Source: a phage. From it: a stretch of DNA of 56,700 nt. Position numbers and translations under genes: made by a program. The notes under the pieces were generated by a model. The model saw nothing but the letters and a program-made list of their open reading frames with translations. It did not search any database and had not been told where the DNA came from. Positions within the stretch are counted from its first letter, which is position 1. Every line of letters begins with the position of its first letter. Below are positions 277 to 56,700 of this stretch, in pieces. The stretch lies in sequence record PZ544694.1, one strand, 5' to 3'.

Positions 277-1401
277 ATGAAATCAATCAAGGAACTTGTC
301 GCGAGAAGTGCGAACAATCCCCCGGAGGTTAAAGCACAAGGCGGTTATGAGGGTGCTCAGCGAAACTCGCGAGAAATGTATCGCTGGACGCCCGCAATAG
401 TCTCTCCGGATCAGGAATTAGACGGCGGACAAAAAGAATTAGCCGATGCCCGGGTTCAAAACGTTATCCAGAATGACGGTTTTGCGTCCGGTGCCGTATC
501 GATACATCGAGATAATATCGTCGGCTCTCAATACATGCTAAACGCTAAGCCGAATTTGTCCGCGCTAGGACTAAAAGGAGCTGACGCCGAAGCATGGGAG
601 GAGGAGTTTCAAGACGTCGTAGAGTCGAAATTCAACGTGGCTGCGGACTCAACGGAAAACTGGTTTGATGTCACACGACGCAATTCTTTTACCGGCTTGG
701 TTCGCCTCGCGGTGGCCCAAGCACTGATTTCCGGTGAAGTATTGGCATCGGCAGAATGGTCAAGAACCGCAGGTCGTCCTTTCAATACGGCCATTCAAAT
801 GATTAGCCCGCATCGACTGAGCAACCCGAATAACTCGGCCAACACGAAAAACATTCGAGGCGGTGTTCATGTCGATGCGTTCGGACGACCAATCGGGTAC
901 TACATTCAAAACAGTTTCCCGGGAGAGAGTTTAATCAACGGTGAGAATCAAATGTGGCGATATGTTCCATCACGCAAACCGTGGGGACGTCGACAGGTTA
1001 TTCACATCATGGAGCAAATTCTCCCGCACCAAAATCGCGGTATCTCAGACATGGTTGCAGCATTGAAGACCATTAGAATGACTAAGAACTTTCAGGAGAT
1101 AACGCTACAAAACGCGGTAATCAATGCCTCGTATGCAGCCGCAATTGAGTCGGAGCTACCACCGGAAGCCGTTTACGCTCAGTTAGGTTTAGGGCAACGT
1201 CCGTTCGGCGAGATTATCCATGAGATGATGACGAACGCAGCATCGTACTACGCGACTGCTAAAAACATGGAAATAGACGGCGCCAAGATCCCGCATTTAA
1301 TGCCCGGCACTAAGTTGAACTTAAAACCGATGGGGACTCCCGGCGGGATCGGCACGGACTTTGAGGAGTCGTTACTACGCCACATCGCAGCATCGTTATA
1401 A
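277..1401 (+). CDS. portal protein, lambda gpB family (N-terminal ~70 percent only)
   Basis: 374 aa colinear with lambda gpB: SIHRDNIVGS, MISPHRLSNPNN, INASYAAAIESEL, AKIPHLMPG, FEESLLRHIAASL; ends with TAA where homologs continue. Confidence 0.85.
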   Translation: MKSIKELVARSANNPPEVKAQGGYEGAQRNSREMYRWTPAIVSPDQELDGGQKELADARVQNVIQNDGFASGAVSIHRDNIVGSQYMLNAKPNLSALGLKGADAEAWEEEFQDVVESKFNVAADSTENWFDVTRRNSFTGLVRLAVAQALISGEVLASAEWSRTAGRPFNTAIQMISPHRLSNPNNSANTKNIRGGVHVDAFGRPIGYYIQNSFPGESLINGENQMWRYVPSRKPWGRRQVIHIMEQILPHQNRGISDMVAALKTIRMTKNFQEITLQNAVINASYAAAIESELPPEAVYAQLGLGQRPFGEIIHEMMTNAASYYATAKNMEIDGAKIPHLMPGTKLNLKPMGTPGGIGTDFEESLLRHIAASL

Positions 1402-4053: not shown

Positions 4054-5577
4054 ATGCGAAAGAAATTCTCGAAACGTACGGTTGGGAAGACTAAAGTTAA
4101 CCTACTTGAAGAAATCAGGAAAGGTAGAAAACTTGTTGAAAGACAACGGGAAGACTTACACGAGTATCAAGTTGAAGCCCGACAACTGGCGCATGACATT
4201 CCATTCTGCGGATTATTCCTCGAAATGGGTATAGGCAAAACCGTAATAACCGGAACGCTGATCGCCGACTTACTTGATAACTTTGAAGTAGATAGAGTTC
4301 TCATTATAGGCCCTCGTAGGGTGGCTAAAGTAACATGGCCGGACGAATTCATGGAGTGGGGTCATCTATGTGGGTATAAAGTAACGCCGGCAGTCGGAAC
4401 ACCCAAGGAAAGACTAGCGGTACTAAATAGCAATAGTCCTATCGTATCCATAAACCGAGAGAATGTAAGCTGGCTAGTAAACTATTACAAAGGCAAGTGG
4501 CCGTTCGATATGGTGGTCATAGACGAGTCGAGTTCCTTTAAGTCTCACAAATCTAAGCGGTTTAAGGACTTAACTAAAGTCAGACCGAGGATAAAACGAC
4601 TAATCGAGTTGACGGCCACCCCAAATGGCGAGGGATTTACTTCGTTCTTTTCTCAAATATATTTACTTGATTACGGTAAACGGTTCGGCCGTAGCTTCAA
4701 TAAGTTTAGGGATAAATACTTCGAGTACAACCCGTATAACCACAGCATCAAGCCGAGAGAAGATACGGAGATGCGTATCTTAGAAAAGATAAAAGATATA
4801 TGCGTAGTTATGCGAGCAGAAGACTATCTCGATCGAGTACCGTATGAGCCAAAGGTGATCCCGGTAAAACTCAATAAGAAGATCACCAAGGAGTATTTCG
4901 ACTTCCAAAAGAATTTAGTCATGATGATACCCGAAGCGGAAAACGTCATAGTGGAAGCGCAATCGGCAGCGATACTCGCATTGAAACTGCTACAAATGTG
5001 CTCCGGCGTTATTTACAACACGTACTATGACGGGATAGATGAGAACGAGGAGCCGATAAGGAAGACCGACATCTATGATATCCACGAGGAGAAACTAGAC
5101 GCGCTCGAAGTGTTTCTGGAAGAAGCAAAGGAAGCCGGAAAGAATGTTTTCCTTGGGTATCACTTTCGGTCATCACGAGAAAGAATATTAGCCCGATTCC
5201 CGGATATCGTCGAGATGGATAAAGACGGAAATAACATAAAACAATGGAACGCGGGGCGAATAAAAGTTTACATGGCACACCCTCAAAGTGCGGGGCACGG
5301 CTTGAATTTACAGCGGGGCGGACATACAATTCTTTTCTATGACATTCCGTATTCGTTCGAGAACTATGACCAATTTATCGGCCGGCTCGATAGGCAAGGT
5401 CAAAAGCACCGAGTAACAGTACACCACTTAGTTGCGGTCGGAACAAATGAAGATGGCCGAACAGTCCAACTAGCCGACCGCCACGTTTATAACAATCTGA
5501 GACGTAAGGAAGAAAACCAAGATTGGGCCTTGAAGACCTTACGTGATCTCAGAAAAGCGATGAAAAAGGAAGTTTAG
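4054..5577 (+). CDS. SNF2-family (DEAD/DEAH-like) helicase
   Basis: 507 aa; motifs GIGKT (I), VVIDESS (II), LTATP (III), QSAGHGLNLQ and QFIGRLDRQGQ (VI). Confidence 0.85.
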   Translation: MRKKFSKRTVGKTKVNLLEEIRKGRKLVERQREDLHEYQVEARQLAHDIPFCGLFLEMGIGKTVITGTLIADLLDNFEVDRVLIIGPRRVAKVTWPDEFMEWGHLCGYKVTPAVGTPKERLAVLNSNSPIVSINRENVSWLVNYYKGKWPFDMVVIDESSSFKSHKSKRFKDLTKVRPRIKRLIELTATPNGEGFTSFFSQIYLLDYGKRFGRSFNKFRDKYFEYNPYNHSIKPREDTEMRILEKIKDICVVMRAEDYLDRVPYEPKVIPVKLNKKITKEYFDFQKNLVMMIPEAENVIVEAQSAAILALKLLQMCSGVIYNTYYDGIDENEEPIRKTDIYDIHEEKLDALEVFLEEAKEAGKNVFLGYHFRSSRERILARFPDIVEMDKDGNNIKQWNAGRIKVYMAHPQSAGHGLNLQRGGHTILFYDIPYSFENYDQFIGRLDRQGQKHRVTVHHLVAVGTNEDGRTVQLADRHVYNNLRRKEENQDWALKTLRDLRKAMKKEV

Positions 5578-5865
5578 ATGACTGTTAGAGAGAGCAAAGT
5601 CGAATCGGATATCCGAAAATACGCTTTGGCCCGAGGCTGGTGGGTTTCTAAATTTACTAGCCCCGGTAAACGAGGCGTACCAGACCGGATATTCATTAAA
5701 AACAGTTTTGTAGTTTTTATCGAAATCAAACGCCCCGGAGAGAAGCCGTCGAAGCAACAAGAATTACGCATGGCCGAGATGAAGCGCTACGGGGCTTTAG
5801 TATATTGGGTGGATAATTTAAACGATGCGAAAGAAATTCTCGAAACGTACGGTTGGGAAGACTAA
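5578..5865 (+). CDS. VRR-NUC domain nuclease (PD-(D/E)xK fold)
   Basis: 95 aa; GVPDRIFI ... VFIEIKRPGEKPSKQQ pattern typical of VRR-NUC; last 41 nt identical to first 41 nt of the SNF2 ORF. Confidence 0.6.
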   Translation: MTVRESKVESDIRKYALARGWWVSKFTSPGKRGVPDRIFIKNSFVVFIEIKRPGEKPSKQQELRMAEMKRYGALVYWVDNLNDAKEILETYGWED

Positions 5866-7899
5866 GTGGAATCGAAAAGAACGTTAATTTTTGACTATGA
5901 AACATATAGCGAACTAGACATAAAGAAAGTAGGCGGTCACAAGTATGCACAGCACCCGTCTACTGAAATTCTAATGGTAGCGTGGAAGTTTACTGACTCG
6001 GACGAAATCGGTTTTTGGGACAACACAATGCCCGAAGAAGATTTAGACGAGTTAAAGGGATATTTGCGCGACGATAACATCATAAAACGGGCATTCAACG
6101 CGCAGTTTGAGCGGTTGATCACTAAACACGTCCTAGGTATCGACACACCGTATGACGTCTGGCGTTGTACGATGGTGGCTGCGTACCACCGAGGTTTTAC
6201 CGGCGGGTTAGACATGGTTGGTAAGGCTCTAGGTTTTAAAGGGGATAAAGCAAAAGACGCAGCAGGTAAACGCCTAATTCAGAAATTTTGTAAACCAAGA
6301 AAGCCAACTAAACTCGACAAAAGTACAAGACACGATGCGGAATCACACCCGGAAGAATGGGAAGCATTCGGAGCCTATTGCCGACAAGACGTGATAGCCG
6401 AAGAAAATATCGACCGCCGTCTGAGTGACATCAAGTATGACATGATCGAATTTGAGTGGGAAGTTTACGCGTTAGACCAGAAAATTAATGACCGCGGAAT
6501 AAATATCGATAACGACTTCATCGAAGCAGCAATAAAGATGGCCGAGACACGCAAGCCACAGATTATCGATGAAATGCGAGAACTTACAGGGCTAGCCAAT
6601 CCCGGGTCTCAGAAACAACTATTAGCGTGGCTACAACAAGAGGGATACCCGTTCAACGACCTATTAGCTGACACCGTGAAAAAAGTCATAAACGAGTATC
6701 CGGACAATGGGATCACAGAAAAAGCGTGTCGAGTTCTTAAACTTCGTCGTAAATCTAACAAAACCTCTCTAAAGAAATACAACAAAATGTTAGATATTGA
6801 AAACGACGACGGTAGGGTACGCGGAACAATTCAATGCTACGGGGGTTCTCGAACCGGACGATTCGCCGGGCGGGGCTTACAAACTCACAACTTCGTAAGA
6901 ACACCGAAGATACTTGAAGACGTCGAAGCTACGGAAATCGCTAAAAAGCTAGTTCTCGACCAAGACATGTGGGCTTTAAACGTTTTTGCTGGCGAACCCA
7001 TGGATATGTTGCCGGGGCTACTACGATCCGCACTAATCCCAACGGTAGGTCGTCGCTTCGTTGTAGCGGACTTGTCATCAATTGAATCGGTAGTAATAGG
7101 TTGGCTTACCGGCTGTAAGTGGTTCCTAGATACCTTGCGGGCTAAAAAAGACTTATATCGCGCATTCGCCTCAGCATGGCTAAAAATTCCTTACGAAGAC
7201 ACCCTCCCATTCCGAGGAAAGGCAAAACCGGCCACACTAGGTTGCGGATATCGACTAGGCGGTGGCGAACTTATTGACGGTAAGAAAACCGGACTTTGGG
7301 GTTACGGTGAAAACATGGGAGTCATGCTAACACAAGAGGAGGCTCACGCTTCGGTAGACGCATTCCGAGAGTTGTGCCCTGAGATTGTTGACGGTTGGTA
7401 TAAACTTGAAGATTGCGTAAAAACCACCATTAAGACGCACAAGACAACCCGATGGAGATCGTTAGTATTCGGGTTTAAAAAACCGTTCTTATGGATTAAG
7501 TTGCCATCGGGGCGGAAACTTTATTACTACCGCCCACGCTTAGTAACAAACACCTACAAGAACCGCAGAGGTGAGACGTACACTCGTCAAGAAATAATGT
7601 ACGAGGGTAAAAAAGATCAAGGCGGTTGGGGTGTTCAAACCACGCACGGCGGGAAATTGATTGAGAATATCGTTCAAGCCATAGCAAGAGATGTCCTAGT
7701 AAACGGCATGTTTAATGCGGAAGAAATAGGTTTCGATATCGTATTCCACGTTCACGATGAAATCATAACGGAAGTCGACGAAGATGACCTGTTAGGGCTA
7801 GACGACCTCATTGATTGTATGGCAGCACCGATATCGTGGGCGCCGGGACTACCATTAGGAGCAGCAGGGTGGGAGGGGTATTTTTACCGTAAAGATTAA
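5866..7899 (+). CDS. DNA polymerase, family A, with 3'-5' exonuclease domain
   Basis: 677 aa, GTG start; exo motif LIFDYETYSELD; pol motif A-like VVADLSSIESVV; motif B-like KAKPATLGCGYRLG; motif C FHVHDEIITE. Confidence 0.8.
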   Translation: MESKRTLIFDYETYSELDIKKVGGHKYAQHPSTEILMVAWKFTDSDEIGFWDNTMPEEDLDELKGYLRDDNIIKRAFNAQFERLITKHVLGIDTPYDVWRCTMVAAYHRGFTGGLDMVGKALGFKGDKAKDAAGKRLIQKFCKPRKPTKLDKSTRHDAESHPEEWEAFGAYCRQDVIAEENIDRRLSDIKYDMIEFEWEVYALDQKINDRGINIDNDFIEAAIKMAETRKPQIIDEMRELTGLANPGSQKQLLAWLQQEGYPFNDLLADTVKKVINEYPDNGITEKACRVLKLRRKSNKTSLKKYNKMLDIENDDGRVRGTIQCYGGSRTGRFAGRGLQTHNFVRTPKILEDVEATEIAKKLVLDQDMWALNVFAGEPMDMLPGLLRSALIPTVGRRFVVADLSSIESVVIGWLTGCKWFLDTLRAKKDLYRAFASAWLKIPYEDTLPFRGKAKPATLGCGYRLGGGELIDGKKTGLWGYGENMGVMLTQEEAHASVDAFRELCPEIVDGWYKLEDCVKTTIKTHKTTRWRSLVFGFKKPFLWIKLPSGRKLYYYRPRLVTNTYKNRRGETYTRQEIMYEGKKDQGGWGVQTTHGGKLIENIVQAIARDVLVNGMFNAEEIGFDIVFHVHDEIITEVDEDDLLGLDDLIDCMAAPISWAPGLPLGAAGWEGYFYRKD

Positions 7900-8505
7900 A
7901 TGGCAAAACTTAAACCAGTAAAACGTATTAAACATGAAGGTAAAACAGTAGCGGTAATCTATGAAGACGGCCACGTCCGAATTGATAATGTTCGCTTGTC
8001 ATACCCACACTTAGCAACACCACAAGAGGGTGATGACGGCAGTAAAAAGTTCGGTGCTACATTCTTATTAGACAAGGACATTCATTCTGAAACAGCCGAA
8101 GTCTTAAAAGATTTAGCAGCTAAAACAGCGAAAAACGCGAAAGTGAAAGTCCCGTCATCGAAGTATTTCATCAAAGATGGTGACGAAGAATTTTCGGACA
8201 AACCTGAATGTGAAAATATGTTTGTTATCTCCGCCCGGGAAAAGAAACGTCCTGTTTGTCGAGATGCTGACAAAGAAGAAATCGACGTAGACGATATTGA
8301 AGAAATCCTATACGGCGGTTGCTATGTTAGTGCCTTGATTGGTCTTTGGGTTCAAGATAACAAATACGGAAAACGAGTTAACGCTAACCTCCGTTCAATC
8401 AAATTCATCAAAGACGGCGAGCCGTTCGGTGCTGAAAGAATCGATGATTCCGAAGCGTGGGACGACGAAGACGAATGGGGTGAAGGCGAAGAAGACGACA
8501 TCTAA
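7900..8505 (+). CDS. putative ssDNA-binding protein (DUF2815-like) with acidic C-terminal tail
   Basis: 201 aa; N-terminal RLSYPHLATPQ...FGATFLL resembles DUF2815 phage proteins; C-terminal DDSEAWDDEDEWGEGEEDDI; next to DNA polymerase. Confidence 0.4.
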   Translation: MAKLKPVKRIKHEGKTVAVIYEDGHVRIDNVRLSYPHLATPQEGDDGSKKFGATFLLDKDIHSETAEVLKDLAAKTAKNAKVKVPSSKYFIKDGDEEFSDKPECENMFVISAREKKRPVCRDADKEEIDVDDIEEILYGGCYVSALIGLWVQDNKYGKRVNANLRSIKFIKDGEPFGAERIDDSEAWDDEDEWGEGEEDDI

Positions 8506-9834
8506 ATGGATAAATCATTTTTACATCGACTTATGTTGGCTTGCGAAAATGACGGACATTCGATATTCGCACCGTCATACTCCGCAACTTGGATGAATTG
8601 CCCCGGGTCGCTAGTACCTAGCATCTTGGAGGAAGATTCAGCCGGGTTCGAGGCAGCCGAGGGAACCATCGCCCACGCTATTGCTGAGGAGTGGTTGAGA
8701 ACCGGGAACAGGCCCGACCACTTATTAAATACAACTCAGGTACACGAGGAGAACGGAAATCGATTCGAGATCCCGGTCGACCACGAAATGTTCGAGTATC
8801 TTCAAGAATACATTAAGATGTGCGGTGAGAACAAAGGCGATCAGTTTGTAGAAACTAAAGTGTGGTTCACGGACTTAATGCCGATCGCCAACCCGGACGC
8901 AGACGAGCTAAACGGGGAAGATGAAAGCCCGATTAAGTTTATCCGACAAGGCGGTACGTGTGACCACGCTGTATGCCAACCCGGTAAATTAATCATAACC
9001 GATTTGAAATACGGGCAATTCATTCACGTTTCTACTGACGACAATACTCAATTGAAATTGTACGCATACGGATTCTTTAGAGAGTTCGACGAAAAGTATC
9101 ACTTCGAAGATATAGAGATCCGTATCTGTCAACCGAGAAAATATAATTTTGGCCGGTTTAAGATGACCCGTTCGGAGATTATCGCTTTCGGGGAGCGAGT
9201 GAAAAAAGCCACCAAAGAAGCGTGGAGTATGGACGCTCTACGTTACCCAAGTGAAAAGGCTTGCGAGTGGTGTAAGATATCCTACAAATGCCCGGCGAAC
9301 TTCGCAAGAATACTAGATCTCAAGAACGGCAGATACAGCCCTAACCCATTCGGATACTCGGCGGACGACATGGCAAGTATAAAAGATCTCCTCAGAGAAG
9401 AACTAAATTTACAATTAAAAGAGACTTCCCTATTGACATGGGAGGAAATTTCGTTAATATACCCACATCGCAAGCCGATAGAGAAGTGGTTCAAAGATGT
9501 TGAGAAAGCAGCATCAAAACGGATCATGGAGGGTAAGCCGATAAAAGGCTTGAAGATGGTAGCGAAAAGAGGGACTCGGCAGTTTGTTGAGGAGTCCACG
9601 GCCACGGAAGAACTAGAATTTGTAGGGCTAGACGAAAGTCAAATAAACCCCACAAAGATGATATCCCCGAAACAGGCCGAAACACTATTGAAAAAGCTAG
9701 GATATGATAAAGATGTTGTTAAAAGCATCTTGTCTGACCTGACTTTTACAAAACCGGGCGAACCGACGTTAGTTACAGAGGACGACCCACGAAAAGACCT
9801 AAACGAGAAGTATCAAGAAGTTTGGGACGATTAA
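8506..9834 (+). CDS. Cas4/RecB-like PD-(D/E)xK nuclease with Fe-S cysteines (DUF2800-like)
   Basis: 442 aa; N-terminal Cys (WMNCPGS), ITDLKYGQ (D-x-K), C-terminal C-x2-C-x5-C (CEWCKISYKC). Confidence 0.5.
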   Translation: MDKSFLHRLMLACENDGHSIFAPSYSATWMNCPGSLVPSILEEDSAGFEAAEGTIAHAIAEEWLRTGNRPDHLLNTTQVHEENGNRFEIPVDHEMFEYLQEYIKMCGENKGDQFVETKVWFTDLMPIANPDADELNGEDESPIKFIRQGGTCDHAVCQPGKLIITDLKYGQFIHVSTDDNTQLKLYAYGFFREFDEKYHFEDIEIRICQPRKYNFGRFKMTRSEIIAFGERVKKATKEAWSMDALRYPSEKACEWCKISYKCPANFARILDLKNGRYSPNPFGYSADDMASIKDLLREELNLQLKETSLLTWEEISLIYPHRKPIEKWFKDVEKAASKRIMEGKPIKGLKMVAKRGTRQFVEESTATEELEFVGLDESQINPTKMISPKQAETLLKKLGYDKDVVKSILSDLTFTKPGEPTLVTEDDPRKDLNEKYQEVWDD

Positions 9835-10317
9835 ATGTCACAACAAAACGGCGTTTTAGAAATGTTATTAGCTAGCTTCGCAACTTTAAACGAGAATATC
9901 GAGAAGTTAAACGGAAACATCGAAGCGTTGGTAGCTAACGGCGTAGCATCGGGTAAAACTGAAACTAATGCCGACACTAAAGCTGAAAGCAAATCTGAAA
10001 CTAAAGCAGAAAGCAAGTCAGAGACTAAGACAGAAGAAAAGAAAGCGGATAAAAAATCTAATTCTAAAAAATCTGAAAAACAAGCTGACAAGCCGGCGGA
10101 TAAACCTAAATACACTAAATCAGACATCACCGAAGCGCTTCGCAAAGTTCGAGCTGATATCGACAAAGAAGAAGCGGTTCGCATCATCAATGAAGTCGGC
10201 GGTGTTGAGAAGATGGGCCAGATCCCAGAAGATAAGTATGAAGCTGTTTTCCAAGCGTGTGAAGCATCTCTTAACGGTGAATCAGATGACGACTCAGGCG
10301 ATGACGACGATATGTAA
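9835..10317 (+). CDS. hypothetical protein, charged repeats (KAESKSETK) and acidic C-terminus
   Basis: 160 aa frame-1 ORF; low-complexity Lys/Glu/Ser repeats; no recognised domain. Confidence 0.4.
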   Translation: MSQQNGVLEMLLASFATLNENIEKLNGNIEALVANGVASGKTETNADTKAESKSETKAESKSETKTEEKKADKKSNSKKSEKQADKPADKPKYTKSDITEALRKVRADIDKEEAVRIINEVGGVEKMGQIPEDKYEAVFQACEASLNGESDDDSGDDDDM

Positions 10318-10653
10318 TTGACTGGATTGTCTCGTTTCGACACGGCCTATAATACTCGTTATGAAATCCCTGTCAACACCTTTTTGACGAAATTTTTATA
10401 TCGGGTATCCACCTCAATGTTAGGCCACCCGAAAAGTTTCATTGCCGGTAAGATGTTTATCGCCTTTTAGGTGATACTTTTATCCTCTCAACTGATATCG
10501 CTCTCAGGTGGCCGTAGATTTAAGTCCGTTCACGTATTGACTTTCTGTTTTAAGTGGAATATCCCGCGCGTTGACTTATCTATAATTCTTGCGGTATTAT
10601 CTGCGTCTACCCTCGGGTTAGATTTATCACAACTAAGGAGCAAGTATTTATGA

Positions 10654-10938
10654 ATGAAAGAGAGTAATTTCCCATCGTGGGCGAAGAACAATAAAACGGG
10701 TCGACTTAAATTCATGATCCGGCATTTAGCCAGTTTCGCTTCGGAGGAGGGCCACCTAGTTTTCCTGTGCCGAGACGCTAAACTGTCGGTTCGTGGTGTC
10801 TCACAAGCAATCGACCGAGGAGAATTCACCTTTCAAATGGCGGATAAACTCGTTAAGGCTGCAAGCGTTGCTGGAAACCCGGACGTCACAGTTATGAACC
10901 TATTAAAACCTATGGAATCATTTAAAGAGGACAAATAA
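10654..10938 (+). CDS. hypothetical protein
   Basis: 94 aa frame-1 ORF upstream of primase-helicase; AAGAGGA Shine-Dalgarno-like motif at its 3' end precedes the next ATG. Confidence 0.35.
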   Translation: MKESNFPSWAKNNKTGRLKFMIRHLASFASEEGHLVFLCRDAKLSVRGVSQAIDRGEFTFQMADKLVKAASVAGNPDVTVMNLLKPMESFKEDK

Positions 10939-13614
10939 ATGTCTAACGTTTTCAAATCTCGTGGCCCTGAACTTTTCGACAATGGATACGAAGTCGTACC
11001 TATTACTCGTATCGACGCAACTGACAGCAAAGGGAAATTATTGTCTGGCGCGGGTAAAGCCCCGGCGTTAAAAGGGTGGCAGAAAATAGAGATCACTTCT
11101 GACATCGTTAATGAATGGGCGACGGGTAGTCGCTCTCGCTGTGGTGTGGGTATTCGTACCCACCGTAACCCTGCTGTCGATATCGACTGTTTAGACGCCG
11201 AAGCGTCAGAACACATGACGGCTTTCGTTGAGTCGGAAGTGGGCTTTGCTCCTATCCGTGTTGGGCGTGAACCTAAAGCGCTACTCCTCTATTATACAGA
11301 ACGTCCTTTCACAAAAGTAAAATCAACCATCTTCGTTGATGAAAACGGGAATGAAAACGCTGTCGAGATATTAGGAAGCGGGCAACAATTCGTTGCTTAC
11401 GGTATCCACCCGGGAACTAAGAAACCGTATAAATGGGTTACTAAAGGCGAGTCGCCTGCGGAAAACCAAGCGGATTTTGACCTTGAAGAAATCACACTAG
11501 AAGACGCGAGAAAAATTATTGCGGAATTCGACCGGTATGCGAAAGAGCGCGGTTGGAAACCTTTAAAAAGTAAAAGCGGTACGGTCATCAAGCCATCTTT
11601 GGGCTACTACTTAGATGCTCCGGAAGAACTATCAGACTGGTCGGACGAGTCGGACTTTGACGATGATGAAGACGATTGGGTCACTACTGATGATATCACC
11701 GATAAATGGGACGGTACTTACGAAGAACTTTACGAAATCTTCGAAAATGATATCGAACCATCTTACGATTACCACACTTGGATTCCTGTTCTGGCTGCAC
11801 TTAAAGACGCCGAACGTGAGCCGGACGAGTTTAAAGAGATCGCGAGAATGTGGTCTGCTCGGGCCGAGGAGTCTTTCGATAACGATGCCTTTGAAGATAA
11901 ATGGGAAAACGGTAATTTCAATCGTGTTGGTAAATACGCTAAGACATTACGAGGAGTAATTGCCGAAGCGGAAAAGATCCAAGGCGTTCGCGAAATTGAG
12001 GACGTAGTTATACCTTTATTCGAAAAAGCTACTGACTTGGCCGAGTGGACTTTAGCTGCCGACCGCCTACGTGAAACGTGGGCTTTCGGTTTAGAAAGAG
12101 AGACGGCCATAAACATTGCTTGCGAAAAGTATAAGAAAGTCACTAACGGGTTAAAACTTACGGACGTTCAAAAGAAACGATATCTTAGTATCGATTACTC
12201 TCTCTTTGACGCTCCCGAATGGTTGGCTCCTTGGGTTTATTGTACTACGGATAACGAGTTTATTAACTTAGACAATAGAACCAGAATGAACCCTAAATCT
12301 TTCGCGAATGCCTATAACCGAGAAACTGTGAAGAAATTCGGGGTAGCTGCGGACGTTTTCGCCACGGTTGAAAGACCCGTTCCTGTTATCCACGATACGA
12401 TGTATTACCCGTTGATGCACGGTGAGATGCCTAAGAACAAATGGAAGCGGGTTCCGGGTATTAATGACAAGCGTGTTTTCGAATACAACGGTTTGACGTT
12501 CTTAAATACCTTTGACCATCGTTCCATGCCTGAGACCGCAACAAAAATTTCGACCGCTGGATATAAGGCGATCGGGGAGGTAAAACGATACTTCGAAATA
12601 CAGTATCCAGATCCAGACGAACGAAGACATGCGATGGACTGGATCGCGTGGGTTATCAATAATCCTGTTAGAAAGATTAACTATATGCTTCTCGTTCTTG
12701 GTGGTCAGGGTTCCGGTAAAACCATCGTTAAGAAGTTTATGGAACACATGCTCGGCTCTGATAACGTCTCTACGATTTCGAATAAGGTTATCCATGGTAA
12801 TTTTACCGGGTGGCAGTCTGGTCACATGCTCAAAGTTATTGAGGAAATATCGGTGAGTGGTCATCGCTACGACGTTATGAACTCATTGAAAGAGCCGATA
12901 TCGAATGAAACGTTACAGATCGAAGCGAAGTACCGTGACCCACGCCAGTGTGTGAATACTTCGTCGTATATGGCATTTACCAATGATGTTGGTGCTTTGC
13001 CTCTTACATCAAGTGACCGTCGCTTCTTGTTAGTTCGTAGTGCGTTCCAGCACAAGCGTGAAGTCACTGAATACCTACGGAAAGACCCTAATTACTTTAA
13101 ACGGTTTGAGAAAGCCTTTACTAAACACGCACCGGAGATCCGCAAATGGTTTAGCGAGTGGGAGTATTCCGAGGGCTTCAAACACGATGGTAACGCTCCT
13201 GAAACGGTGAGTATGGGAAGCATGTCTTTAGCGTCAGAAGACGATTTCACCTCCGTAGTAATGGGGGCCGTAGATGATTGTGAGAAAGAGTTAGAATTTA
13301 CATCGGGGATCACAGACGAAGTAATTTTCATTCCATCGGCAGTAGATTTAGTCCGAGATAGGTCTAAGGTTCCTAACGGGAAAATAATATATCGCATACT
13401 CGCTGAATATGGTTTCTTCCGGCCTGTGGATTCTCGTACACAAATAAGATTTAATGACGTAAGAGGACAAGTTGTTGTCGCGAATAGACATAAATGGCTC
13501 TATCCTGATGGGAGTGTCAACGTAGATAAGATTAAAGAGCATTTAGAGGAGAACGAACGCCGGGTAGAAGAACAAGAAAGCAAGAGAGAGTTAGAAGAAA
13601 CTGACGTTTTCTAA
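10939..13614 (+). CDS. DNA primase-polymerase / SF3 helicase (PrimPol N-terminus, D5/P4-type helicase C-terminus)
   Basis: 891 aa; N-terminal GYEVVPI...GKAPALKGWQ PrimPol-like; Walker A LVLGGQGSGKT, Walker B-like region further C-terminal. Confidence 0.7.
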   Translation: MSNVFKSRGPELFDNGYEVVPITRIDATDSKGKLLSGAGKAPALKGWQKIEITSDIVNEWATGSRSRCGVGIRTHRNPAVDIDCLDAEASEHMTAFVESEVGFAPIRVGREPKALLLYYTERPFTKVKSTIFVDENGNENAVEILGSGQQFVAYGIHPGTKKPYKWVTKGESPAENQADFDLEEITLEDARKIIAEFDRYAKERGWKPLKSKSGTVIKPSLGYYLDAPEELSDWSDESDFDDDEDDWVTTDDITDKWDGTYEELYEIFENDIEPSYDYHTWIPVLAALKDAEREPDEFKEIARMWSARAEESFDNDAFEDKWENGNFNRVGKYAKTLRGVIAEAEKIQGVREIEDVVIPLFEKATDLAEWTLAADRLRETWAFGLERETAINIACEKYKKVTNGLKLTDVQKKRYLSIDYSLFDAPEWLAPWVYCTTDNEFINLDNRTRMNPKSFANAYNRETVKKFGVAADVFATVERPVPVIHDTMYYPLMHGEMPKNKWKRVPGINDKRVFEYNGLTFLNTFDHRSMPETATKISTAGYKAIGEVKRYFEIQYPDPDERRHAMDWIAWVINNPVRKINYMLLVLGGQGSGKTIVKKFMEHMLGSDNVSTISNKVIHGNFTGWQSGHMLKVIEEISVSGHRYDVMNSLKEPISNETLQIEAKYRDPRQCVNTSSYMAFTNDVGALPLTSSDRRFLLVRSAFQHKREVTEYLRKDPNYFKRFEKAFTKHAPEIRKWFSEWEYSEGFKHDGNAPETVSMGSMSLASEDDFTSVVMGAVDDCEKELEFTSGITDEVIFIPSAVDLVRDRSKVPNGKIIYRILAEYGFFRPVDSRTQIRFNDVRGQVVVANRHKWLYPDGSVNVDKIKEHLEENERRVEEQESKRELEETDVF

Positions 13615-14030
13615 ATGCACGTTTGGTCAAAAAATGAGCGTACAAAATTTATACAGAAAAACGTTCAATATTTAACCGATTTTCGGGTGATCGGATTTTT
13701 TGAGTGAGTGAATTTCCAATTTTTCATTTTTCCATTTTTTGGTCGAAAAACACCGAAAATGCTGTACAAATTTTATACAGGGTTTTTTGACACAAAGTGT
13801 GTCGGTCATGTGTTCCGACGTGTGCGTGCCAGTTAAATGTTGTACAAAAATCACCCAACACACATGATCGAATTACCTTTATATAGCTTATATATATATT
13901 TTTCTATTTTTCCTTTCCTATCTATTTTTTCTTTCTTCTGGAATTTCTATTTTATTATCTATTACTGTGTTTGCTGTGTCAGAAAGAAAGTAATATAGTT
14001 GCTGTGTCAGAAAGAAAGTAATATAGTAAA
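13615..14030. promoter_or_regulatory. AT-rich repeat-containing region, candidate origin or regulatory region
   Basis: Three copies of AATG-nn-GTACAAA-type motif at 13633-13656, 13757-13780, 13834-13853; T-tracts; 28-bp tandem repeat at 13972-14027; only very short ORFs. Confidence 0.35.
13972..14027. repeat. perfect 28-bp tandem direct repeat x2 (TGCTGTGTCAGAAAGAAAGTAATATAGT)
   Basis: Read directly: copy 1 at 13972-13999, copy 2 at 14000-14027. Confidence 0.9.
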
Positions 14031-17511: not shown

Positions 17512-18153
17512 ATGAGACGCGTTGATCCTAAAGACTGTTTAGACATAATCCTAAACTACCATTATGCGAAACGTCGACCTAGCATATCTTACGCTTTCGG
17601 GTTCTTCGAAGACGAGGAGCTTGTCGGGGTTCTAACTATCGGTAAGCCGGCCAGCAACCCGCTATGTGTTGGAATATTGGGCGAGGAGTACAAAAGCCAC
17701 GTTTTTGAGTTAAACCGACTTTGTTTTATTCGTCCAATCCGTAACGCTCCGTCGCAGTTGATCGCCTTCGCTATGGCTGAGTTGAAAAGTGAAAACCTTG
17801 TCATCGTGTCGTATGCGGATCGCGGTATGAACCACAACGGATATATTTATCAAGCGTCTAATTTCATCTACACGGGGGCGACGAAAGCGCGCACCGATAA
17901 ATACACGGAGCAAGGTAAACACTCTCGGCATTATCAAGGAAAGGAAAGCAAGACGTATCGACAAGTCAGAACATCTAAGCATCGTTACGTTTATTTTACG
18001 GGGAGCCGTTCGGTCGTGAAGAAGTATAAAAAGTTGCTTCGATATCCGGTATTGCCTTATCCCAAGGAAGAAAATAAAAATTATGTGCTCGGATCCGAGT
18101 ACAAGCAAGAACTCGTTAAGATTAAAGGGGGAGAAAATGAAGCCGGTAAATAA
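17512..18153 (+). CDS. putative Mom-like DNA modification protein
   Basis: 213 aa; HYAKRRP, LVGVLTIGKPASNP, VIVSYADRGMNHNGYIYQASNFIYTG, KHRYVYF, PVLPYPKE recalled as characteristic of Mom-family proteins; recalled from memory, not searched. Confidence 0.4.
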   Translation: MRRVDPKDCLDIILNYHYAKRRPSISYAFGFFEDEELVGVLTIGKPASNPLCVGILGEEYKSHVFELNRLCFIRPIRNAPSQLIAFAMAELKSENLVIVSYADRGMNHNGYIYQASNFIYTGATKARTDKYTEQGKHSRHYQGKESKTYRQVRTSKHRYVYFTGSRSVVKKYKKLLRYPVLPYPKEENKNYVLGSEYKQELVKIKGGENEAGK

Positions 18154-22887: not shown

Positions 22888-23976
22888 ATGAAACCATTTG
22901 ATAAATTTATTGCTTTTGCAATATCTGAACCAGCAGACCCTAACAATACGACTTCGTTTTCCGCATTAGCTAACGGGACAGAAGACCAACTAAAACAACT
23001 AGGCCGAGAACTAGAAACAAGCCTGAGAAACTTACCGATCGGAGACCCAAGCGCTATGCAGTGGACGCGCCACGGTTTTGCTAAACCCGACGAGAACGCC
23101 GAACCGATCACCGTTGTAGATGAAGTCCTAGGGGACATGGAAGACACACCATACGTTATGATAGACGAAGCGGGTAAATATCTTGTGTTCACTTTCGAAG
23201 AACGTGCTCGAATGCTAAGCCCGACAACGATCAAGGACGAATTAGAGGTTAAAGTAAAAGATTGGATAGAACGAGTTGGTGACACCCCGACAAAACGTGA
23301 ACGTAATGATATGCGCGATGAAATCATCAATGACTTGTTGCCAAAGGCCACAATAAAGCGCACCAAGACATACGCCATGATCATCAAGGGTGTTCTTATT
23401 GTCTTCGCCGGTAGCAATAACATCGGTGAAAAAGTAGCATCGGCCGTAAGAAAGGTAGTAGGGTCTCTCCCAGTAGTACCATGGTTTGAGCATTCGGCCC
23501 TCATTACGGAGTTTCTAAAGAAAATCGCTACGGTAGACTTTGACCCGGAAGATGCAGTAGGCCAAGCGCTAGATAAATTTGAGATTGTCCGTAGTGCTAA
23601 AGTCTCCGCTGAAACCGGTGCGTACACTTTCAAAGATGTTTTTGACATCACGAATGACGTTTCCTTCAAAGAAGCGCTAGGACAAACTAACGGATACTCA
23701 TACCCTCTCGGGATCACCGAAGCGAATTTAGAATTACGACATGACGCCACAGACAGCCCTATCGGTTTTGTTCTTACGGCCAAAGGCGTTTTAAAGAGCG
23801 TAAATTGGAATGACGAGCCGGAAAATATTTTCGACGACTCAGTGTTTGACACGAACGAGGAACGGGAGCGTGCTCGATTTATTTTCTCTACGTGGGACGC
23901 TTACACCTTAGTTACGGCCGTGCTAGGAGCGCTACACAACGCAAACGCAAACCGATTTGTAGAAGACGATATGTAA
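22888..23976 (+). CDS. rdgC: recombination-associated protein RdgC-like
   Basis: 362 aa; RNDMRDEIINDLLPKATIKRTKTYAMIIKGVLIVFAGS...VRKVVGSLPVVPW colinear with E. coli RdgC (KDEVLHSLLPRAF...LRKSLGSLPVVP). Confidence 0.7.
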   Translation: MKPFDKFIAFAISEPADPNNTTSFSALANGTEDQLKQLGRELETSLRNLPIGDPSAMQWTRHGFAKPDENAEPITVVDEVLGDMEDTPYVMIDEAGKYLVFTFEERARMLSPTTIKDELEVKVKDWIERVGDTPTKRERNDMRDEIINDLLPKATIKRTKTYAMIIKGVLIVFAGSNNIGEKVASAVRKVVGSLPVVPWFEHSALITEFLKKIATVDFDPEDAVGQALDKFEIVRSAKVSAETGAYTFKDVFDITNDVSFKEALGQTNGYSYPLGITEANLELRHDATDSPIGFVLTAKGVLKSVNWNDEPENIFDDSVFDTNEERERARFIFSTWDAYTLVTAVLGALHNANANRFVEDDM

Positions 23977-26844: not shown

Positions 26845-27585
26845 ATGATGATCAATCCCTACGCGGTGGAATTACAGAAATTGAAAGACGCCAAGAAACA
26901 CATTCCAAAGCAGATAAAAGACCAATGGCGTACTCCGGACTGGCTTTTCTACGCGCTAAACTCTTTATACGGCCCGTTCTTGGTAGATTTGTTTTCAGAT
27001 GGACAGAATGCTAAGTGCTCCCGGTATTTCATGGCCGAGGATAATGCGCTACAACAGAACTGGAAAGAAGCACTAGAAGACGCCAAGTTTGAATTCCTTA
27101 TCGATGCAGACTGTGCGGGGTACGATGCTACTGACGATCTAAAGACGGCCAAGTGTTTTGCTAACCCGCCATACAGCCCGGCTAAGTATATCGGTAAAGG
27201 GCGTAAGAATAGAATACCGCTCTGTGGTATGCGAAATATCATGGCTAAGGCCTACGAGGAACACAAGGCCGGTTGCCCTTCATTCTGGTTGCTTAAATCC
27301 GCCACGTCAGAAGATTGGTGGCCTAACGAGACCGCAAGCCAGATAATCCACATCAAGGGTAGAATTGCTTTCGAGAAACCGGTGTGGTTTAGAGATGAGG
27401 TCGTAGACCGCGTGGAAAGTAGTGCTGCTTTCGGTGCGTCCGTTGCTATTTTTAACGGAATAAACGATATTCAAGAACCGGAAGCCTACATCAGTCGAGA
27501 TACCTTAAAATTAATAGGGGAGCCACTTGCTGAAATTAATGCGGAAAGACGCGCCGAGTGGATAGCTAGTTTCGACGATCTATAA
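26845..27585 (+). CDS. dam: DNA N6-adenine methyltransferase (phage Dam family)
   Basis: 246 aa; WRTPDWLF...FLVDLFSDGQNAKC and catalytic NPPYS motif. Confidence 0.8.
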   Translation: MMINPYAVELQKLKDAKKHIPKQIKDQWRTPDWLFYALNSLYGPFLVDLFSDGQNAKCSRYFMAEDNALQQNWKEALEDAKFEFLIDADCAGYDATDDLKTAKCFANPPYSPAKYIGKGRKNRIPLCGMRNIMAKAYEEHKAGCPSFWLLKSATSEDWWPNETASQIIHIKGRIAFEKPVWFRDEVVDRVESSAAFGASVAIFNGINDIQEPEAYISRDTLKLIGEPLAEINAERRAEWIASFDDL

Positions 27586-56181: not shown

Positions 56182-56700
56182 ATGAACCTTTCATACGAAC
56201 AGTTTAGCCGAGACTACACGAAGACTAACTATTCTTCCGCGAGAGCCTCAATGGGGGAAACATGGAAATTCATGCAGTCTCGCAAAAAGATCATTGCTGA
56301 TGCTTTCGCTACAAACATTTATGCGTTGTGGTTAGAGGAGATGATAAACAAAAACGAAATCCCGTTGCCACGAGGAAAAACGAGCGACTGGTTTTACGAA
56401 CCGTTAGTGAAAGACTGTTTAATTCGTTGCGACTGGATAGGTGCAGCCCGCGGTCAAATCGACGAGAAGAAAGAGACCGAAGCAGCTATCATGAGAATTA
56501 ACAGTGGTCTGAGCACTCGTGAGAAAGAAATCGCTCGACTCGGCGAAGACTGGAGAGAGATTTTTAGGCAGTTAGAACGAGAAAAACGAATAAAAGATAA
56601 ATACGGGCTTGTTTTCTCCGGAGATGTGAGTAATATATCCGCTAACGAGAAAACAAACTCGGAAGATGACGAAGAAACTAACAGTGGGGATTCGGAATGA
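56182..56700 (+). CDS. portal protein, lambda gpB family (C-terminal ~30 percent only)
   Basis: 172 aa; NLSYEQFSRDY...YSSARAS...WLEEMI...CDWIGAARGQID...INSGLSTREKE colinear with the lambda gpB C-terminal third; continues ORF 277-1401 with no residues missing; ends with TGA at the last window base. Confidence 0.8.
   Translation: MNLSYEQFSRDYTKTNYSSARASMGETWKFMQSRKKIIADAFATNIYALWLEEMINKNEIPLPRGKTSDWFYEPLVKDCLIRCDWIGAARGQIDEKKETEAAIMRINSGLSTREKEIARLGEDWREIFRQLEREKRIKDKYGLVFSGDVSNISANEKTNSEDDEETNSGDSE

Follow-up and report, generated by a model that had tools for sequence, protein, structure and literature searches.

Phage T7 encodes a polymerase (gp5), a protein that binds single-stranded DNA (SSB; gp2.5), a primase-helicase (gp4), an exonuclease (gp6) and an endonuclease (gp3). 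A second arrangement, the 'duf2800-gp2.5-polA module' without a separate ssb gene, has been described in phages of Firmicutes and of Gram-negative bacteria (PMC8093625) and is also seen in APSE-7 and a Guernseyvirinae phage; in those phages, tRNA genes, regulators, HNH and Lar genes are interspersed, and the primase partner is of the VirE or 'helicase-primase' type. The replication module of phage Enc34 comprises a primase, a transcription factor, a polymerase, a VRR-NUC protein, a helicase and four hypothetical proteins (PMC5686142), and a replication module is also named in the genome paper of phage RP6 (PMC10194311). Here we analyze the replication and recombination genes at positions 4054 to 13614 of a 56,700-nucleotide stretch of phage DNA (sequence record PZ544694.1; the window), which are those of Escherichia phage E21 (MN604053.1 / NC_052983.1; 58,536 bp; Casjensviridae, Lavrentievavirus). 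These genes very probably constitute a T7-like minimal replisome combined with a recombination and concatemer-processing kit. The module itself is already known: the public E21 record annotates its genes, and publications on related phages describe it. The biological gain of the present analysis is correspondingly small.

Native arrangement of the module

Six open reading frames (ORFs) carry the module, all on the plus strand of the window:

4054-5577, window plus strand (E21 5585 to 4062, minus strand): SNF2-family ATPase/translocase, 507 amino acids (aa)
5578-5865, window plus strand (E21 5832 to 5545, minus strand): VRR-NUC-type PD-(D/E)XK nuclease, 95 aa
5866-7899, window plus strand (native minus strand): family A DNA polymerase (PolA), 677 aa, GTG start
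7900-8505, window plus strand (native minus strand): T7 gp2.5/Enc34 ORF6-type SSB, 201 aa
8506-9834, window plus strand (native minus strand): predicted DUF2800 RecB-family (Cas4-like) nuclease, 442 aa
10939-13614, window plus strand (E21 11075 to 13750, plus strand): fusion of AEP PrimPol, PriCT_2 and an SF3 (D5/VapE-like) helicase, 891 aa

A preliminary description of this DNA had placed the six ORFs at exactly these boundaries, and all six of the protein identities it proposed are upheld by Pfam, PHROG, solved structures and folds. It had also read them as one block on one strand. Natively they form two divergent units, and the single-strand appearance comes from the concatenation of coding sequences in the window.

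An ORF walk showed that 85 plus-strand ORFs follow one another in a single frame from base 1 to base 56700, each stop codon being followed directly by ATG, GTG or TTG; the ORFs abut exactly and the number of intergenic bases is zero. To our knowledge, natural phage DNA is not arranged as a gapless chain of ORFs in one frame. A megablast search of 4054-13614 against phage records returned Escherichia phage E21 at 100% identity, in separate pieces. Mapped onto NC_052983.1, all 85 window ORFs are 100% identical to E21 and stand in the ascending order of that record, each individually flipped to its own sense strand. Therefore, the window is a head-to-tail concatenation of predicted E21 coding sequences (CDSs) and not native genomic DNA. 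Strand, gene-overlap and intergenic information is lost in it and native overlaps are duplicated; because of this construction, inferences on strand, operons, gene order, promoters, terminators, intergenic signals and small ORFs that are drawn from the window are unreliable. The gene call behind the window holds 85 CDSs, against 64 in the public E21 annotation. It lets the helicase and DUF2800 genes begin further upstream than the annotation does, with better support, and it adds two tiny ORFs over the promoter region.

According to the E21 GenBank and RefSeq records and the ORF mapping, all genes between E21 4062 and 10438 lie on the minus strand. The native leftward order is gp09 (a small protein described below), the DUF2800 nuclease, SSB, PolA, VRR-NUC and SNF2, the reverse of the window order, and this unit continues without break into terS, terL, an adaptor gene and the portal gene. 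The primase gene and gp10, which precedes it, lie on the plus strand, opposite to the genes from gp09 to SNF2 and divergent from them. The two units are separated by 352 bp that are non-coding in both the GenBank and the RefSeq annotation. As the window lacks intergenic DNA and its strand information has been erased, one might suppose that the adjacency of the six genes is a mere concatenation artefact and that they form no functional unit natively. We give this reading practically no credence: the native genes of the leftward unit directly adjoin one another, at spacings that run from -41 to +64 nt, and face the primase unit across the 352 bp, and the same neighborhood occurs in four other phage lineages. 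That the genes are a non-unit in the native genome is refuted by the E21 record itself.

These lineages were sampled through four increasingly distant matches to the SSB family, in Chivirus 118970_sal1, the Ahduovirus Burkholderia phage AH2, APSE-7 and a Klebsiella phage of the Guernseyvirinae. Each of them carries DUF2800, SSB, PolA and VRR-NUC in that order, together with a divergent primase that has a small Cro-like gene in front of it. In three of the four the series goes on with an SNF2/helicase gene; none was seen in the stretch of APSE-7 examined. The claim that polymerase, DUF2815 and DUF2800 form a recurring phage cassette is thus borne out by the same order in four other lineages and by the published module (PMC8093625). 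In APSE-7, an aphid-symbiont phage, and in the Guernseyvirinae phage the three genes stand side by side in the E21 order and a separate ssb is lacking, with VRR-NUC downstream and the divergent primase-helicase upstream; the APSE-7 annotation places a putative replication origin between the two divergent units. The Enc34/Chi-like/'Nazgul-like' phages (Casjensviridae) have the same genes in the same order, with the primase and regulator divergent from a unit that runs from a hypothetical gene to the helicase and then to terminase. The E21 proteins share only about 25-54% identity with their orthologues in Chivirus and AH2. AH2 differs in having regulator and excisionase genes inserted ahead of terminase. 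The AH2 polymerase (AH2 6270-8324), although in the same slot, shares only 25% identity, and its alignment across the polymerase motifs is poor; in this phage, a conserved module may have had its polymerase replaced.

Much of this is already reflected in public labels. The E21 genes are named in GenBank/RefSeq as SNF2/DNA helicase, VRR-NUC/endonuclease, DNA polymerase I, Gp2.5-like SSB, exonuclease and primase, and the Lavrentievavirus relatives (pPM_01, RP6, Inception and others) carry the DUF2800 gene under the label 'putative Cas4-like protein'.

Comparison with T7 brings out the same set of functions in partly different protein families. Both phages have a proofreading family A polymerase, an acidic-tailed SSB of the gp2.5 fold, a fused primase-helicase, and a separate exonuclease and junction-resolving endonuclease. 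The primase-helicase is an AEP PrimPol joined to an SF3 helicase in E21, whereas T7 joins a DnaG-like primase to a DnaB-like helicase; the exonuclease is predicted to be of the RecB/Cas4-like iron-sulfur (Fe-S) type, in contrast to the FEN-like gp6; the resolvase is VRR-NUC in place of endonuclease I; and the SNF2 ATPase is additional in E21. The likeness to T7 is one of functional analogy, not of membership.

Protein families, catalytic residues and predicted folds

The identities, folds and conserved catalytic residues of the module are established by the following evidence, as the native layout and its conservation across lineages are by that given above. Among the Pfam families proposed as checks in the preliminary description, SNF2, DNA_pol_A, DUF2815, DUF2800 and Prim-Pol were all found, VRR_NUC and Helicase_C fell below their cut-offs, and D5_N was undetected. 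NCBIfam returned nothing above its curated cut-offs for any of the eight proteins searched.

PolA comprises a 3'-5' exonuclease domain (about aa 1-200) and a polymerase domain (about aa 210-677). Pfam DNA_pol_A is matched at 40.0 bits (cut-off 34.3) by an alignment limited to aa 226-470, and phrog_17 at 1.4e-120. A profile of four orthologues aligned in the Protein Data Bank (PDB) to Klenow/Taq motifs A-B at about 3e-13 (Klenow 3.2e-13), as well as to motif C. At the sequence level the exonuclease domain is weak: Pfam DNA_pol_A_exo1 scored 18.2 bits against a cut-off of 23.6 (E=0.0023), the NCBIfam alignments were faint, and a single-sequence search of the PDB with the N-terminus gave noise only. 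For this reason 67 homologues were aligned. The DEDDy residues D10, E12, E82, Y171 and D175 are invariant in all of them, as are D402/E407 of motif A, R450/K454 of motif B and H630-D631-E632 of motif C. An AlphaFold2 model (pLDDT 94) was matched by Foldseek over its full length (700-800 columns) to G20c Pol I, Klenow, Bst LF and DpoZ at E values of about 1e-18, and also to the apicoplast polymerase; this full-length comparison revealed no 5'-nuclease domain. Since the model aligns full length to Klenow-type polymerases, PolA is, by its predicted fold, a Klenow-type enzyme with presumptive exonuclease and polymerase activities. The proofreading domain of this polymerase clade, weak by database profiles, thereby gains support at the level of the fold.

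The SSB matches PF10991 (formerly DUF2815) at 103.3 bits (cut-off 26; 1.5e-29) and phrog_112 at 3.9e-47, and members of the family occur in 295 phage records that span many host genera. Against solved structures it matches the crystal structure of Enc34 ORF6 (5ODJ) at E=3.9e-54, and also 4KLK and 4JG2; in view of the 5ODJ match, the oligonucleotide-binding (OB) fold has already been solved experimentally for a close relative. Enc34 ORF6 is an ssDNA-binding protein whose acidic tail matters (PMC5686142). The E21 protein has such a tail in its last 20 residues, DDSEAWDDEDEWGEGEEDDI, just as the preliminary description had noted. By analogy with its family, it probably also anneals strands.

The primase matches Pfam Prim-Pol at 41.9 bits (cut-off 22.8; 1.9e-10), PriCT_2 at 27.9 (cut-off 22; 3.2e-6) and DUF5906 at 57.9 (cut-off 27.6; 2e-15), with VapE-like below its cut-off, and phrog_1156, DNA primase, at 4.1e-134. 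No D5_N match was obtained in Pfam at E<=0.01, a domain that is not required for the family. A Walker A motif, GGQGSGKT, lies at residue 588, and the surrounding P-loop region (aa 543-700) matches PDB 6K9C, 'Primase', at 7.6e-5. From these sequence features, the PrimPol-SF3 fusion is the probable replicative primase-helicase.

The DUF2800 protein matches PF10926 at 224.7 bits (cut-off 21; 2.7e-66) and phrog_69, exonuclease, at 4.3e-96. DUF2800 has been grouped as RecB-like (PMC3424549), and many homologues of the E21 protein additionally carry PF12705. The cysteine pattern pointed out in the preliminary description, C-x2-C-x5-C, is formed by C253, C256 and C262 and is accompanied by an upstream cysteine, C32. 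Across 66 homologues C32, D153, D166, K168, Y186, C253, C256 and C262 are invariant, and Q182 is conserved in at least 90%. A single-sequence search of the PDB gave no matches, and a five-sequence profile gave as its best a non-significant AdnA (E=1.1); structure prediction was needed because neither search returned anything significant. With an AlphaFold2 model (pLDDT 89.8), Foldseek retrieved AdnAB (1.5e-4), Cas4 SSO0001 (1.6e-3), RecE, RecB, Exo5, Dna2, AddAB and MGME1, in matches that span about aa 1-270 only and whose TM-scores are low. Several of these nucleases bear an iron-sulfur cluster held by the same 1+3 arrangement of cysteines. The model thus supports a RecB/Cas4-type nuclease with a predicted four-cysteine Fe-S cluster within aa 1-270, and the RecB/Cas4-like nature of DUF2800, weak by database profiles, is now backed at the fold level. 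Cas4 proper was considered and rejected: the protein has 442 aa with an extra C-terminal domain, against about 200 aa for Cas4, its neighbors are SSB and polymerase, and the E21 annotation contains no cas genes. It is Cas4-like in fold only and not a CRISPR Cas4. The C-terminal domain (about aa 275-442; window 9328-9834; about 170 aa) is conserved and confidently predicted. The public E21 annotation probably truncates this gene by nine codons.

The 95-aa VRR-NUC protein matches phrog_93, endonuclease, at 9.6e-28, and PDB entries 4QBO (stNUC; E=4.4e-12) and 4QBN (saNUC; 1.4e-4), which are published structures of stand-alone VRR-Nuc proteins (PMC4103454). Its motif D35...E48-I-K50 aligns with GVPDR...EVK of stNUC. 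Together with psNUC, stNUC and saNUC are VRR-Nuc dimers that cut four-way (Holliday) junctions (PMC4103454), and by analogy the E21 protein is probably a dimeric Holliday-junction or branch resolvase.

In E21, the SNF2 gene shares 41 nt with the 3' end of the gene for VRR-NUC. Its product matches Pfam SNF2-rel_dom at 34.8 bits (cut-off 24.9; 1.3e-8), with ResIII also above its cut-off, and phrog_62, DNA helicase, at 8.7e-135. Solved structures of INO80, Rad54 and RapA are matched at about 1e-9, and a Sulfolobus SNF2 protein is matched as well; alignments to the C-lobes of RapA and INO80 over aa 395-467 also reach about 1e-9. The sequence contains GIGKT (59-63) and a VVIDESS/DESS box. In RefSeq the protein starts at M58, three residues short of the GKT in the ATP-binding loop, which drops the conserved YQ motif; no ribosome-binding site (RBS) precedes this start in native DNA. 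Met1 is the sole other in-frame start and has a plausible RBS. The long ORF is favored because the M58 start has neither an RBS nor the YQ motif, and the 507-aa protein is probably the better gene model. The public annotation would then cut the helicase just before its ATP-binding motif.

The presence of these three proteins allows a different reading, in which DUF2800, SNF2 and VRR-NUC serve mainly in counter-defence or in degradation of host DNA. SNF2-type ATPases and PD-(D/E)XK nucleases are also found in defence systems, Cas4-like folds serve outside replication, and in NCBIfam the SNF2 protein shows a weak, sub-threshold similarity to the DISARM protein DrmD and to DpdE. These scores are far under the cut-offs (56 versus 610 bits), roughly a tenth of them, and a defence or counter-defence role for SNF2 on this basis was rejected. 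Moreover, a single operon interleaves these genes with those of the polymerase and SSB, and distant phages keep them in a fixed order; the published reading is that of a replication/recombination module (PMC8093625, PMC5686142). We regard a mainly counter-defensive role as very improbable.

Divergent control region and small flanking genes

Four ORFs lie at 9835-10938, within the range covered by the preliminary description, and were absent from it. They and the promoters of the region are as follows:

9835-10317, window plus strand (native minus strand): gp09, 160 aa, first gene of the leftward operon
10318-10470, window plus strand: tiny ORF 1, TTG start, 50 aa
10471-10653, window plus strand: tiny ORF 2, GTG start, 60 aa
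10654-10938, plus strand (E21 10791-11075): gp10, small conserved protein, 94 aa
10318-10653 (E21 10459-10794): most of the divergent intergenic region, shown in the window as the two tiny ORFs
10349-10376 (E21 10517 to 10490, minus strand): candidate leftward promoter, TTGACA-16-TATTAT, 11/12 consensus
10571-10600 (E21 10712-10741, plus strand): candidate rightward promoter, TTGACT-18-TATTAT, 10/12 consensus

The two best sigma70-like promoter matches in the area both fall within the 352-bp region that separates the units. The two tiny ORFs, which cover these matches, were rejected as real genes: their start codons are of rare types, no RBS precedes them in native DNA, neither has a Pfam (E<=10) or PHROG match, and they are unannotated in both E21 records. 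They are probably spurious gene calls.

Gp09 has a strong RBS in native DNA and matches phrog_7721 (2.5e-50), a family without known function; it is rich in Lys, Glu and Ser, with tandem repeats of the KAESKSETK type, and Chivirus, AH2 and VLCpiS11a have a hypothetical gene at its position. Its C-terminus, SDDDSGDDDDM, is acidic and resembles the SSB tail. Gp10 matches phrog_7401 (2e-30) and no Pfam family, even at E<=10. Its RBS is strong, and it overlaps the primase gene, to which it is translationally coupled, at an ATGA. Pairwise, it is weakly similar to AH2 gp77 'Cro' (2e-5) and to Chivirus ORF3 (4e-4), and it is a putative regulator, the positional equivalent of the Cro-like/helix-turn-helix gene of related modules.

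Between gp09 and the DUF2800 gene, native E21 has at 9915-9936 (minus strand) a terminator-like hairpin followed by a T-run, which is absent from the window. It could act as an attenuator of transcription into the replication genes.

Proposed division of labor and dependence on the host

We infer the biochemical activities, protein contacts, promoter use and division of labor of the module as follows. Because the candidate promoters are of the sigma70 type, host RNA polymerase would drive both units from the two diverging promoters. Rightward transcription would yield gp10 and the PrimPol-SF3 primase-helicase, which would unwind the fork and lay primers, the role of gp4 in T7. Leftward transcription would yield gp09, the DUF2800 nuclease, SSB, PolA, VRR-NUC and SNF2, and then terminase and head genes. 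PolA would synthesize DNA with its proofreading exonuclease (the gp5 role), and SSB would coat ssDNA while its acidic tail contacts the polymerase and the primase-helicase. The DUF2800 Fe-S nuclease would resect 5' ends and, with annealing by SSB, could form a two-component recombinase like T7 gp6 and gp2.5; it may also aid in primer removal, as PolA is without a 5'-nuclease domain. Forks and junctions would be remodeled or branch-migrated by SNF2, with whose help the VRR-NUC dimer would resolve junctions and so make concatemers ready for packaging, the role of gp3. Resolution of junctions before packaging fits the location of the terminase genes immediately downstream in the leftward unit. 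A part for the DUF2800 C-terminal domain and/or gp09, either as an adaptor docking the nuclease onto the replisome or as a tail-mimic regulating the SSB-binding sites on the polymerase and primase-helicase, can be imagined and is decidedly unlikely.

The preliminary description had called the module complete and replication largely host-independent. The phage does encode a polymerase, an SSB, a primase-helicase, two nucleases and an accessory ATPase of its own, as would a self-sufficient replisome. However, the E21 annotation and Pfam scans of the 20 larger middle-region ORFs, many small ORFs having no assignment, revealed no ligase, clamp or clamp loader, topoisomerase, RNase H or 5'-flap nuclease domain, nucleotide-metabolism gene or phage RNA polymerase; the absence of a ligase and an RNA polymerase also sets E21 apart from T7. 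PolA is Klenow-like, and the promoters look sigma70-type. Complete, largely host-independent replication is therefore unlikely, and the evidence favors a phage that brings its core fork machinery and relies on host functions for ligation, DNA topology, precursors and transcription.

Several points weigh against the proposed scheme of a T7-like replisome and recombination kit. The literature search found no experiment on E21 or on any Lavrentievavirus protein. The role of SNF2 is the weakest part of the mechanism, and its Helicase_C match, at 21.3 bits, is just below the cut-off of 23.5; the Pfam VRR_NUC match of the 95-aa protein (15.7 bits, cut-off 23.8, E=0.016) is also below threshold. The C-terminal 170 residues of the putative DUF2800 nuclease have no solved-structure match in Foldseek. 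The annealing ascribed to SSB stems from the family label, and the promoters are consensus matches only. A search of the native control region for iterons or origin-like repeats yielded short, probably chance repeats only, and hence no claim of an origin is made.

Three proteins encoded outside the block also have Pfam matches. An RdgC-like recombination-associated protein (PF04381, 2e-22) lies at window 22888-23976 and is 168 nt longer at its 5' end than the RefSeq call. A Dam methyltransferase (PF05869, DNA N6-adenine, 9e-30) lies at 26845-27585; it is named 'phosphoadenosine phosphosulfate reductase' in RefSeq, probably a mis-annotation. A Mom-family protein (PF25680, 5e-35) at 17512-18153 suggests that the phage modifies its DNA.

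The host labels of some matching phage records look doubtful. Under the names of E. coli, Salmonella and Staphylococcus phages, genomes have been deposited whose identity to this Proteus-phage genus is at least 98%; records labeled Enterococcus and Pseudomonas also match the 4054-13614 region, and a 5.9-kb 'Listeria phage' record bears a Chivirus-like SSB gene. Finally, the origin of the circular E21 record falls inside the portal gene (window 277-1401 and 56182-56700) and splits it. The N-terminal part of the gene (E21 1122 to 1) carries in the window a TAA that is absent from E21, its C-terminal part (E21 58536 to 58021) carries a leading ATG that is likewise absent from E21, and in RefSeq just a 450-nt fragment of the gene is annotated.

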